Source of the DNA: a virus
Lineage: Duplodnaviria > Heunggongvirae > Uroviricota > Caudoviricetes
Virus record (IMG/VR): IMGVR_UViG_3300046522_000750
Length of the DNA stretch: 64,000 bases
Direction: 5' to 3' (one strand)
In this document: positions 1,068 through 44,804 of the stretch, one piece after another
Numbering within the stretch: position 1 is the first letter of the stretch
Layout: every line of letters starts with the position of its first letter
The notes under the pieces: model-generated
What the model saw: only the letters and a program-made list of their open reading frames with translations
The model's database searches: none
What the model was told of the DNA's origin: nothing
Made by a program: the position numbers and the translations under genes

Positions 1068-2186
1068 ATGTCGGTGCAAGAAGCGAAAATCTTGAACCCG
1101 GCAGAGCCATTGACGCAAACCATCGCAGATCGACGCACCAAACTGCTGAAGGGCTTTGACCTATCGTCAGCGCAAGGCATCCTGCCGCTGACCAACGAAG
1201 AATTCCACGAGCAAGCCAACCCCATCGTGCGCAGTGCGCTGTTTGCCGCGATCAAGTCCAAGGGTCGCTATGACGAGTGGACGGACATCTTCTCACTGGG
1301 CGGCACCGTCAAGTACAAAGGCCCACAACTGACCGTCGACCATGAAATGCTGTTCACCCGCATTCTGGTGAGGGCTCGAGGCCGTTCGCTGACTAAGCCA
1401 GTGCCCTTCTTGATGACCGAGGCCCTGGGTTGGCTCAATATCAAGGACTCAGGCCCTAACCGAACCCGTATCCGCACCCTGCTGGAAGATCTTGAAGCCG
1501 GCAGCGTGAAGATCGCGAGCAAGTCCATGCTGGCCCGCCTGTACAACGTGCTGACACGCAAAGACCTTGAGTCGCTGCCAGACGGCAACTTCCTCAAGCA
1601 GAGCGTGACCAACCGGTACAGCGAATACCTGCCGATGATTATGGACTGCTACAACAACAAGGAGCCGTTCGAGATCTCCCTGAGCTTCATCAATCGCAAT
1701 GCCACCCAAGGCAACTCGCGCCGGCTGATGGTGGAGCTTGACGACATGATGGCGTTGTTGTTCGATGGGGTGAACACCACCCTGGTGCCTTTCGAGCTGT
1801 GGGACTCTCTGGATGCCTATGGTAAGAAACTGATGCCCTTCATCGCCTCTCACCGCGATGGCGTGTTCAATCTTCTTCTGGAGAGCTACCACTGCCTCTC
1901 CGGCAGCAAATCGACCTATGAGTCGGTAGAGCGTCGGTTCAAGTCTGACTTCAACAAGCGGCTTAAGGAATATGAGGATAAAGGCTACATCGAGCCTGGC
2001 TGGGGGATTGTGCGCAATCGCGAGCACCGCTGGATGGTCACCGGCCTTAAAGGCGCCGATGCCCTGAAGATCAAATCAGAGTTGCTCAAGGGCTCTTTTG
2101 TCGACCCGGATCCGGCTGTGCACTATGCCGATGAAGATGAGTCCGATGTAATTGAGCACGTGCCTGATCAGGCCAGCCTGCTTTAA
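1068..2186 (+). CDS. repA: Plasmid replication initiator protein, TrfA-like
   Basis: 372 aa with RBS AAGGAG. The NPIVRSALF and YKGPQL motifs resemble TrfA-family initiators, and the gene is next to the iterons. Confidence 0.75.
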   Translation: MSVQEAKILNPAEPLTQTIADRRTKLLKGFDLSSAQGILPLTNEEFHEQANPIVRSALFAAIKSKGRYDEWTDIFSLGGTVKYKGPQLTVDHEMLFTRILVRARGRSLTKPVPFLMTEALGWLNIKDSGPNRTRIRTLLEDLEAGSVKIASKSMLARLYNVLTRKDLESLPDGNFLKQSVTNRYSEYLPMIMDCYNNKEPFEISLSFINRNATQGNSRRLMVELDDMMALLFDGVNTTLVPFELWDSLDAYGKKLMPFIASHRDGVFNLLLESYHCLSGSKSTYESVERRFKSDFNKRLKEYEDKGYIEPGWGIVRNREHRWMVTGLKGADALKIKSELLKGSFVDPDPAVHYADEDESDVIEHVPDQASLL

Positions 2187-18690: not shown

Positions 18691-18722
18691 AAAAAAAGCC
18701 CCTATGTTTTACCATAGGGGCT
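18691..18722 (-). terminator. Intrinsic terminator of the tRNA operon
   Basis: AGCCCCTATG/CATAGGGGCT hairpin plus T7 on the minus strand. Confidence 0.8.
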
Positions 18723-18816
18723 CGAAAGGTATATCAGGGAGGGTTACAGCAGTCAGCAAGCATCAAACAACATCACTACATCACACGGCACAACAATTAT
18801 GTCAATACATCGAAAA

Positions 18817-18893
<77 letters not shown>

Positions 18894-18906: not shown

Positions 18907-19014
18907 TGGTGCAGAAAGGGGAGAGTTGAACTGCCCGACCTCTTACTAAATTCGCCAAGCTGGGGGAGTCAGGGCAAATTCAGACAAGCGCTCTAAACAC
19001 TGAGCTATTTCCGC
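18907..19014 (-). ncRNA. tRNA-like RNA with a 30-nt insert in the anticodon arm
   Basis: Acceptor GCGGAAA/TTTCTGC-ACCA, D arm GCTC/GAGC, T loop TTCAACT; anticodon arm extended into a long hairpin; 108 nt. Confidence 0.75.
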
Positions 19015-19030
19015 ATAAAACCTTTGAATC

Positions 19031-19104
<74 letters not shown>

Positions 19105-19109
19105 GAAAC

Positions 19110-19185
19110 TGGTATTGCTAACATACGTGAGCCACAGAAGTGGAATTGAACCCCTTCTCCGCCCCAACTGAGGCTCACGTATGCA
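19110..19185 (-). ncRNA. Anticodon-less tRNA-like RNA (T-loop and D-loop motifs on a 12-bp stem)
   Basis: CATACGTGAGCC/GGCTCACGTATG stem enclosing TCAGTTGG and GGTTCAATTCC; ACCA at the 3' end. Confidence 0.55.
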
Positions 19186-19215
19186 CACTGCTTACGGACA
19201 GTGAATCGTTTTAAT

Positions 19216-19292
19216 TGGCGCTCCCGGCAGGACTCGAACCTGCGACCATCCGCTTAGAAGGCGGATGCTCTATCCAGCTGAGCTACGGAAAC
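19216..19292 (-). tRNA. tRNA-Arg (TCT)
   Basis: GTTTCCG...TCCGC-CT-TCT-AA-GCGGA...GGTTCGAGTCC...GCCA. Confidence 0.95.
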
Positions 19293-19332: not shown

Positions 19333-19361
19333 AGTCTACGGACGCCCTGACAATTTGTCAA
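19333..19361 (-). promoter_or_regulatory. Sigma70 promoter of the tRNA operon
   Basis: TTGACA-17 bp-TAGACT on the minus strand; TGACA-N3-TGTCA palindrome over the -35. Confidence 0.7.
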
Positions 19362-29982: not shown

Positions 29983-30029
29983 TTTGCGGTAAATTGACAA
30001 AATGCGCTACAAATCACCACCTTGCGATT

Positions 30030-30046
30030 GTATACTGCCAGCATAC
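30030..30046. promoter_or_regulatory. GTAT-N9-ATAC operator box
   Basis: GTATactgccagcATAC. Confidence 0.75.
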
Positions 30047-30063
30047 TTAAACAGGGTTTTTTC

Positions 30064-30699
30064 ATGTTTTTTGACGAAGGTTGTTGCGGATATCTCGAAA
30101 TCCCTGATCCGGTACAGACCGCGCCTGTGGTGAAGAGGATTCGCACCCACTACGACAACCTGAAGGTGTCCAGGACGGCCACGTTCGTTGAGATTCGTGC
30201 TTCTTATCGGCGCCTTCGCAGCTTGTACCACCCAGATCGAAACAGTACTGCAAAGGCTAAAACCGCGATCATTTGCATAAATGATGCCTATGAGATCTTG
30301 TCGGATGCCACCGAGCGCGCCAAGTATGATGCCTTTATTGTCGCGGAAGAGCGCAAGCTTAATCCTCCGCGTCCCCAACAACAGCACTCAGCCAACGCAA
30401 ACCCTGCGAAAGCCAAGCACACCCAGTACGCTCATGATCCGGCTAACTGGAACCCGGAACATGCCGCTGATTTCAGGAAATTCGTGCAAGAGAAGCGCGT
30501 GGAATTCGGCGAAGTTTTCGGTGAACTGTCGACGGATTGGCTCTACATGTGTTTTCTTGAAGATCTTAGGATGAAAACTCATTCTGAGCGCCTTGAGGAA
30601 AAGGCCAGAAAGGCTAAGATCCTGGTAATTTGCTGCTTTGTATCCTTGATTCTGGGCATGATCTACATGGGCTTTCTCATCGCACAGAGCGGAAAATGA
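30064..30699 (+). CDS. J-domain (DnaJ-like) protein with C-terminal TM
   Basis: THYDNLKV...YRRL...YHPDRN...INDAYEILSD...RAKYD; start uncertain. Confidence 0.85.
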   Translation: MFFDEGCCGYLEIPDPVQTAPVVKRIRTHYDNLKVSRTATFVEIRASYRRLRSLYHPDRNSTAKAKTAIICINDAYEILSDATERAKYDAFIVAEERKLNPPRPQQQHSANANPAKAKHTQYAHDPANWNPEHAADFRKFVQEKRVEFGEVFGELSTDWLYMCFLEDLRMKTHSERLEEKARKAKILVICCFVSLILGMIYMGFLIAQSGK

Positions 30700-33716: not shown

Positions 33717-34151
33717 TTAATCCCTGCAAGGTTTCAGAATTTCATCGTCTGGGTCGACGCCGTTGGCAATCGCCATTTCACGGTAGTTGTCGAACAGGTC
33801 ATGGCCACCGTCAGAAACCTTGTCCGGCTCATAGGTGCCTTGGCTCAAGCGCAACCGGATTTTCAGGTTGTGATCGGCGCCGCGCAGCAGGAAGCCGGCA
33901 CAGCAGGACGGCTTGCCGGTGCCTGATTCATGACAGGCAAAGGTTTCCATCGCCATGTCATAGGTCGTGTGCGCAGAGATCCGGAACGCCTCAGGCGGAA
34001 ACTCCCCTACCGCATCACGACGCCAAGGGCAGCTTTTGCAGGGCTTCTTGCGGTATAAGCCCTGACCACCCACCACGGTGACCACCTGATGATTTTCATC
34101 AGCAGGGGTTTCTTTGGTGATGACTGCTTTGGTTGGTTTCTTGGTCGTCAT
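33717..34151 (-). CDS. DUF6283-like Cys/His-rich protein
   Basis: PCKSCPWR...FACH...CAG. Confidence 0.7.
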   Translation of the reverse strand: MTTKKPTKAVITKETPADENHQVVTVVGGQGLYRKKPCKSCPWRRDAVGEFPPEAFRISAHTTYDMAMETFACHESGTGKPSCCAGFLLRGADHNLKIRLRLSQGTYEPDKVSDGGHDLFDNYREMAIANGVDPDDEILKPCRD

Positions 34152-44384: not shown

Positions 44385-44804
44385 CTAGTTCGGTATCGGC
44401 TCATTTATCGGTGTATTGGCAGCGAAGTCCCTCCTGCCCTCCCGTTCCAGCTTCGCTGATCTCAAGGCCTTCATTGGGTTGTATTTAGGGTCTGCGATGA
44501 GCGCAGCCCTGAGAGCCATAAACGCATCGGAGTCAGCCAGGAGGTCGCCCCTAAGCTGATTGCACAGAGCATGGGAGATCGAGAGGTTGTCCATTTCATC
44601 GGTGCCGCCGTGAGCAAGCGGTACGACGTGCTCCAGGCTAGCCATTTCTTCGTCGACATGCCGTGTGCAGACAAAGCACGGAACGCTGCCCTGCCGGCGC
44701 AGAAGCATCTTGTACACTGTTTCGCGACGATTCTGCCTGACGTTCCCAGCCAGCCTGGCCTTAAGTCCGCCCGACATCCTGACTTTCCCGTTGCGTTTGG
44801 CCAT
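44385..44804 (-). CDS. HNH endonuclease
   Basis: CFVC...SLEHVVPLAHGGTD...NL...HALCN..RG. Confidence 0.85.
   Translation of the reverse strand: MAKRNGKVRMSGGLKARLAGNVRQNRRETVYKMLLRRQGSVPCFVCTRHVDEEMASLEHVVPLAHGGTDEMDNLSISHALCNQLRGDLLADSDAFMALRAALIADPKYNPMKALRSAKLEREGRRDFAANTPINEPIPN

Follow-up and report, generated by a model that had tools for sequence, protein, structure and literature searches.

A 108-nt gene on the minus strand of the window (the whole 64,000-nt stretch of DNA analysed herein) on balance appears to specify a stable, tRNA-shaped RNA that does not decode, in which a tRNA-like body serves as the scaffold of a conserved hairpin. We hold with a similar, moderate degree of confidence that this element represents a small and previously undescribed family of very large plasmids, which are known from metagenomes and carry it in their AGA/GGA/AGG tRNA operon; a literature search found no paper describing the element family. 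Among the readings offered by an earlier note on this DNA, that of a non-decoding tRNA mimic is the one best supported by the conservation pattern described herein.

As listed below, where RNA position p corresponds to window coordinate 19015 - p and the variants, including clade A and the distant member L146, are those defined further on, the gene folds into a cloverleaf with D and T arms, an acceptor stem of 7 bp and an encoded CCA.

18907..19014, minus strand: tRNA-shaped RNA gene of 108 nt, recognized by its sequence, its fold, an RF00005 match of 43.3 bits and our own covariance model R1.
19008..19014, minus strand: acceptor stem, 5' strand (positions 1-7, with G3 of the G3-U70 pair); 7/7 pairs unchanged in the five clade-A variants, 3:70 being A-U in L146.
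18990..19005, minus strand: D arm (positions 10-25) with a 4-bp stem and an 8-nt loop without G18-G19; GG-less in 6/6 variants, the loop being 7 nt in L146.
18942..18988, minus strand: long arm (positions 27-73) with a 4-bp lower stem, bulge 31, an 11-bp stem and a 3-bp apical stem, as seen in the fold; all five variable stem sites paired.
18957..18972, minus strand: tip of the arm with its C-rich loop (positions 43-58); invariant in 5/5 clade-A variants, the loop core and the following GCUUGG being kept in L146.
18918..18936, minus strand: T arm (positions 79-97) with the loop UUCAACU and a mismatch at 51:63; C-C or U-C in clade A, U-G in L146.
18907..18917, minus strand: acceptor stem, 3' strand (positions 98-104), followed by discriminator A and the encoded CCA; L146 has C as its discriminator.

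The sequence quoted in the earlier note was found letter for letter at 18907-19014 on the minus strand. The cloverleaf is the minimum-energy fold, with an anticodon-side arm of 4 + 11 + 3 bp that bears a one-base bulge at U31 and closes with a C-rich 7-nt apical loop, and its fold energy by itself is unremarkable (z = -1.9). The long hairpin arm proposed previously was thereby recovered, although not in every detail of its pairing: since G69 is unable to pair with both U31 and C32, one base is bulged. Across the six variants, a hairpin of 33-37 nt occupies the site of the anticodon loop, and the element possesses no decoding loop of the usual kind, namely 7 nt with U33 and a purine at 37, free to meet a codon. 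The letters U-GAA-U, which had earned the gene a phenylalanine label (CT-GAA), are indeed conserved in 6/6 variants, but U33-G34-A35-A36 is base-paired within the long stem in every one of them. The D loop, AGUGUUUA in the window and AGUGAAA in L146, contains no GG, and with it the elbow contacts G18-psi55 and G19-C56 are lost. The T loop retains U54, U55, C56 and A58, and the core tertiary partners U8, A14, G15/C48 and G26/A44 are all present. As for the 6-bp T stem reported before, it stems from an extra C in the C run of the window copy and is confined to the window lineage, the other variants having a 5-bp T stem and a 7-bp acceptor; this 1-nt insertion may indicate a slightly relaxed constraint in that lineage.

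The earlier note had proposed running tRNA finders and Infernal on the gene, and the outcome depended on the search settings. ARAGORN did not call the element with its intron option either on or off, and an Rfam scan of the whole window at gathering thresholds with fast filters missed it, but with laxer filters RF00005 gave a full-length match to 18910-19014 with 43.3 bits, the gathering score being 29. This match fills all 71 model positions, places a 33-nt insertion after C32-U33-G34-A35, and has an E-value of 3.5e-8 on 326 nt or 6.8e-6 on the whole window. Because it runs end to end and exceeds the curated score, the element is regarded as a tRNA homologue and not as a chance fold, in good agreement with the previous description of a tRNA-like RNA with an insert at the anticodon loop.

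The operon setting described before was likewise borne out. The element lies between tRNA-Gly(UCC) and tRNA-Arg(CCU), with tRNA-Arg(UCU) further upstream, and one promoter and one terminator enclose five operon elements on the minus strand:

19333..19361, minus strand: promoter-like, sigma-70-like site (TTGACA, 17 nt, TAGACT), conserved in L120, L138, L141 and L146.
19216..19292, minus strand: tRNA-Arg(UCU), the first gene of the operon (ARAGORN, Rfam).
About 19120-19186, minus strand: hairpin element, a non-tRNA structured RNA.
19031..19104, minus strand: tRNA-Gly(UCC), directly upstream of the element (ARAGORN, Rfam).
18817..18893, minus strand: tRNA-Arg(CCU), directly downstream of the element (ARAGORN, Rfam).
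18696..18723, minus strand: intrinsic terminator, which ends the operon.

The presence of a promoter and a terminator and the shortness of the spacers suggest that the element is transcribed together with the three tRNAs from a single promoter. Routine annotation yields three genes for this operon, and standard tRNA finders and filtered Rfam scans skip elements of this kind.

Also encoded in the window are a TrfA-like initiator, HipA, a MoxR/VWA pair and a Panacea-domain protein, along with about 100 small orphan ORFs, and the genes around the element are small orphans. Among public records, only the 1.17-Mb plasmid pPL1 of Pseudomonas silesiensis has a comparable operon, and tRNA-Arg(UCU) of the window is 96-97% identical to the corresponding genes of the Pseudomonas megaplasmids pBASL58 and pMPPla107. 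The relatives reside on metagenome contigs, the longest that were read being 0.95 Mb (L146, a 952-kb scaffold) and 1.1 Mb (L141), and one protein cluster includes a contig of 1.28 Mb. From the likeness to pPL1 and the megaplasmids together with the 0.95-1.1-Mb relatives, the carrier is taken to be a very large plasmid, which is soil- or plant-associated and whose host is probably Pseudomonas-like. On pPL1 the same flanking genes (34-43% protein identity) and the same operon are found, but its tRNA-Gly and tRNA-Arg(CCU) genes are 13 nt apart and the element is absent, and the element is thus dispensable for the operon.

Homologues were reached through the small flanking proteins, the contigs encoding these proteins giving the loci. 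BLAST searches with the element itself returned only the neighbouring ordinary tRNAs, or nothing, from phages, plasmids and E. coli genomes, and only chance matches from four Pseudomonas megaplasmids, while exact-motif scans of viral contigs and genome contigs found nothing. A 16-mer of the D arm hit 17 loci in viral contigs, all of them unrelated, and a 19-mer hit 87 loci in metagenome contigs, none homologous and most of them archaeal-type tRNA-Met genes with the same GG-less D arm. In the sequencing-run search, the element was covered by DNA contigs only, the RNA runs listed share only words of ordinary tRNAs, and the reads of one such RNA run fell on those tRNAs alone. The covariance model R1 scored 129 bits on the window element, 131-135 bits on the four other clade-A variants and 62 bits on L146; in the four megaplasmids it found ordinary tRNAs only, at 48 bits or less.

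Some tRNA genes seen during these searches deserve mention in their own right. Genes resembling tRNA-Met(CAU) and sharing the exact GG-less D arm (L041, L062-L064, L068, L069, L072-L074, L079, L081, L093, L103, L108 and L115) combine it with a T loop of the A56 type and bear, immediately 3' of the anticodon, inserts of about 15-70 nt; the inserts are probably archaeal introns, and these genes are not homologous to the element. On the plasmid of Pseudomonas sp. FeN3W (L004 2244-2330, minus strand), ARAGORN reports within an 11-tRNA array a 'tRNA-Val(GAC)' with its anticodon at position 36, whose 87 nt are unusually long for a class I tRNA.

Six distinct variants of the element were obtained, every one of them between tRNA-Gly(UCC) and tRNA-Arg(CCU):

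Variant 1: the window, L119 and a contig of run X1, with an identical element.
Variant 2: L122, with three changes, the same as a contig of run X3.
Variants 3-5: L120, L138 and L141, which form clade A with variants 1 and 2.
Variant 6: L146, a distant member.

Clade A thus comprises window/L119, L120, L122, L138 and L141; a still more distant locus, L150, was left out, as its sequence stops before the operon. The flanking 128-aa protein of the four other clade-A lineages is 96% (L122 contig) or 58-77% (other three) identical to that of the window.

Within clade A, the element is 94-98% identical, compared with 99-100% for tRNA-Arg(UCU), 84-97% for tRNA-Gly, 65-82% for the spacer upstream of the element and 56-91% for the 3' trailer of the operon; tRNA-Arg(CCU) of the window, which is a different version, is 66% identical to that of the other members. 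Only eight columns of the element vary, namely the bulge at 31, the mismatched T-stem position 82, the length of the C run and the long-stem positions 41, 61, 62, 64 and 67, and positions 1-30 and the apical 16 nt are invariant across the five variants. The five variable long-stem sites interconvert G-C, G-U and A-U with pairing kept in all, so that the clade-A pair cells are standard in 165/165, with a both-sided change in none. In a simple simulation, the chance that five random stem substitutions would all keep pairing was 0.0002-0.013, depending on the transition bias.

Evidence of compensation came from L146, whose element is 79% identical to clade A and whose flanking protein is 41% identical. 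Since MAFFT misaligns the 3' half of its arm, L146 was compared by means of independent folds, and when folded alone it adopted the same architecture as clade A. At the foot of its long stem, C-G is replaced by U-A, a double compensatory change; one whole base pair, i.e., one base per strand, is inserted in the long arm; and several further pairs are altered on one side through G-U. The clade-A mismatch at 51:63 becomes U-G, and the C-rich loop core is kept together with the following GCUUGGCGA. The collection of homologues, which had been suggested as a way to look for compensatory change, hence yielded one full double change and one inserted pair in a set of six sequences, a number too small for formal covariation statistics. 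This double change and this inserted pair within a maintained fold indicate that the fold is under selection.

Together with the conservation figures, selection on the fold makes a decaying pseudogene unlikely. The view that the gene is a dead tRNA, disrupted by an insertion in its anticodon loop and passively carried in the operon, is in keeping with the silence of the tRNA finders, the loss of G18-G19 from the D loop, the mismatch in the T stem, the 1-nt insertion in the window copy and the fact that pPL1 does without the element. It does not explain, however, why clade-A conservation comes near that of tRNA-Arg(UCU), above that of tRNA-Gly and far above that of the spacers, why every stem change keeps pairing, or how a member of 79% identity still has this architecture, along with a compensatory change and an additional base pair. 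We consider it most improbable, and the decaying gene listed among the earlier suggestions is contradicted by the six variants that keep the gene with its stems paired.

We also weighed a purely cis-acting role, in which the element would act as a spacer of tRNA shape, directing RNase P and exonucleases for correct maturation of the neighbouring tRNAs, and would have no later function. Its constant position between two tRNAs with short spacers and the fact that the tRNA body is its best conserved part are both compatible with such a role. The invariant apical loop and the maintained arm of about 18 bp are nevertheless left unexplained by it, and pPL1 joins its Gly and Arg(CCU) genes by a 13-nt spacer without any element; a processing element of this kind is distinctly unlikely.

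Inspection of the acceptor stem revealed G3-U70 and A73 in the five clade-A variants, an alanine mark absent from the earlier note's description. G3-U70 is the main determinant of alanine identity and is read by alanyl-tRNA synthetase without the anticodon. The element could accordingly be pictured as an alanine-accepting tRNA mimic, recognized by AlaRS via G3-U70 and A73, whose charged form would function outside normal decoding, either donating its aminoacyl group or working in the manner of tmRNA. G3-U70, G4-C69 and A73 are unchanged in 5/5 clade-A variants, the ordinary tRNAs best matched by R1 across the four megaplasmids are three genes for tRNA-Ala(UGC), and the anticodon stem and variable loop of the element equal those of tRNA-Ala(GGC) of the megaplasmid pMPPla107; moreover, the 51:63 mismatch would be expected to weaken EF-Tu binding, as in non-ribosomal tRNAs. 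On the other hand, the mark is no trait of the whole family, as L146 has A3-U70 and C73; at 2:71 there is C-G and not G-C; taken as a whole, the acceptor stem comes nearest to that of a plasmid tRNA-Thr(CGU); and no Fem-, MprF- or other aminoacyl-transferase or synthetase occurs among the 108 window ORFs. With regard to the tmRNA-like role in particular, the D stem is intact, unlike that of the tmRNA tRNA-like domain, and there was no tmRNA match. An alanine-accepting mimic thus seems unlikely.

Alanine identity as a family trait was first favoured and was lowered after L146 with its A3-U70 and C73. As 3:70 and 73 vary among the members, no fixed amino-acid identity is conserved, and the variable discriminator in itself argues against any fixed aminoacylation identity. 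Charging with alanine may still take place within clade A, but judging from the six sequences it is not what the family is selected for, and the variation at these two positions warns that G3-U70 in one lineage is insufficient to claim alanine charging. With respect to its descent, the element would originate from a class I tRNA, for which the sequence likenesses leave a single-isotype origin ambiguous between Ala and Thr.

The gene might alternatively be an intron-containing tRNA, from which removal of the insert of about 30 nt would leave a decoding tRNA with the anticodon GAA for Phe codons, perhaps mischarged with alanine in clade A. U33-G34-A35-A36-U37 is unchanged in 6/6 variants, the insert begins at about the canonical intron position, and conserved unexplained inserts are known in tRNA genes of Lak megaphages (PMC6784885). 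The structure, however, offers no bulge-helix-bulge, as both exon-intron borders fall within one continuous helix of 11-12 bp, in which just one base is bulged. In agreement with the earlier remark on its size, the 33-37-nt insert falls far short of the size of a group I intron and gave no Rfam group I match at E up to 10, and neither a splicing endonuclease nor an RNA ligase was found among the 108 window ORFs. After removal, position 37 would be a pyrimidine, and the would-be anticodon stem of L146 would consist of 3 bp and a G-G mismatch; the discriminator and 3:70 differ between members, which is unusual for one isoacceptor, and the apical part is the most conserved part of the insert. These features make the processed tRNA that had been suggested as one option very unlikely.

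The preferred reading therefore remains that of a non-decoding RNA built on a tRNA-like scaffold. In this RNA the tRNA body, i.e., the acceptor, D and T arms with the CCA, would let the tRNA-processing enzymes of the host excise and stabilize the transcript, as suggested by the match to the tRNA model and by the analogy with engineered scaffolds. The arm of about 18 bp, whose structure and conservation are described above, stands in place of the 7-nt anticodon loop and would make codon reading impossible. The C-rich apical loop would be the working end; since it is unchanged in clade A and largely kept in L146, we infer that it binds a partner, which could be either a protein or an RNA rich in G, for example one resembling a Shine-Dalgarno sequence.

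As to the function of the hairpin, we tentatively entertain the possibility that a natural tRNA scaffold delivers a stable C-rich hairpin that acts in trans on the host, either as a decoy or as a sponge or repressor. The decoy could capture a factor that reads pyrimidine-rich loops of the anticodon type, e.g., a tRNA-cutting defence enzyme directed against the Arg and Gly tRNAs of the operon, and the target of a sponge or repressor could be a G-rich, Shine-Dalgarno-like RNA. If true, either would constitute a new class of plasmid-borne riboregulator or counter-defence RNA. Within the window, no antisense RNA was found near the element, no copy of the hairpin was found elsewhere, and no complement of the loop was found. 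An RNAduplex scan of both strands of the window placed the best non-self sites inside an HNH gene and not at a start codon, and they were judged to be due to chance; the best such chance complement to the apical loop lies in the ORF of a 139-aa HNH endonuclease (44385-44804, minus strand). As a separate observation, the window encodes, 15 kb from the element, a 125-aa protein with a domain similar to the C-terminal domain of phage ProQ (34236-34613, plus strand; E 2e-10), which is possibly a plasmid-encoded RNA chaperone and a candidate RNA binder; a DnaJ-domain protein (30022-30699, plus strand) and a DUF6283 protein (33717-34151, minus strand) are encoded near it.

Non-decoding look-alikes of tRNAs are few and tend to mark interesting biology, as exemplified by tmRNA, Y-RNA modules and viral tRNA-like ends. 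The tRNA cluster of phage T4 encodes the stable RNAs C and D (species 1 and 2), which are small, of unknown function and matured from the same transcripts as the tRNAs. These resemble the element in being encoded among the tRNA genes of a mobile element, and they differ from it in carrier and host. In relation to a canonical class I bacterial tRNA (RF00005), the element shares the 7-bp acceptor stem, the 4-bp D stem, the UUCAACU T loop, the core tertiary partners and the CCA; it departs from this type in carrying the arm of about 18 bp with its C-rich loop instead of a 7-nt anticodon loop, in the D loop without G18-G19, in the mismatched 51:63 of clade A and in positions 3:70 and 73, which are not fixed. 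With the tRNA-like domain of tmRNA (SsrA), the element has in common a non-decoding tRNA shape, a long helix at the site of the anticodon arm and, in clade A, G3-U70 with A73. The D stem, however, is intact, there is no mRNA-like domain, the length is only 105-108 nt, the alanine mark is absent in L146, and neither ARAGORN nor Rfam reported a tmRNA match to the element. YrlA, a bacterial Y RNA (RF02553), was also considered and rejected, since it gave only a partial match of 18.4 bits against a threshold of 69; this partial match combines the T arm of tRNA-Gly with the element's D arm.

Two parallels came from the literature. The Lak megaphages carry highly conserved 'enigmatic introns' in the anticodon loops of their tRNA genes without a known splicing route, and these genes are read as decoding tRNAs after in silico removal of the introns (Devoto et al., 2019, PMC6784885). 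Both cases concern anticodon-loop inserts on a large mobile element of bacteria that are conserved between variants; in our element, however, the stem that remains degenerates in L146 and the apical loop of the insert is conserved, the carrier is a plasmid and not a phage, and there is no sequence similarity. In the engineered tRNA scaffolds of Ponchon and Dardel, which offer the nearest functional analogy, a hairpin is exchanged for the anticodon stem-loop, and the products are processed and stable in E. coli (PMC3753655). The retention of the acceptor, T and D arms with a hairpin in place of the anticodon stem-loop is common to both; the scaffolds are man-made, and the element, known here from its sequence, would be their putative natural counterpart, belonging to a family that is compact and conserved over deep plasmid divergence. 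In sum of these comparisons, the element lies outside the defining features of a decoding tRNA, an intron-bearing tRNA gene, tmRNA and YrlA.

Several further observations were made on the remainder of the operon. The second structured RNA, at 19120-19186 on the minus strand, consists of a closing stem of 13-14 bp around a D-loop-like strand and a T-arm-like hairpin, and had no Rfam match. Its closing stem shows both-sided changes at three pairs (window, L120, L138 and pPL1); the RNA is mostly deleted in L141, and L146 keeps the closing stem with a replaced interior. On pPL1 (L001, about 1585-1690, minus strand), in which the tRNA look-alike is absent, an extra G-rich stretch of about 100 nt lies between the hairpin element and tRNA-Gly.

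The tRNA-Arg(CCU) gene of the window, at the 66% identity given above, resembles the pPL1 version rather than its counterparts in the rest of clade A. A 13-nt direct repeat, TATTGACATAA(C/T)T, borders the gene on both sides (18906-18894 and 18807-18795, minus strand), and the direct repeat and the divergent version together suggest a cassette swap of tRNA-Arg(CCU) alone in the window lineage. Finally, the trailer of about 90 nt between tRNA-Arg(CCU) and the terminator (18724-18816, minus strand) contains a block conserved in clade A, GCTGACTGCTGTAACCCTCCCTGATA, which may represent another small RNA or serve as a signal for processing.
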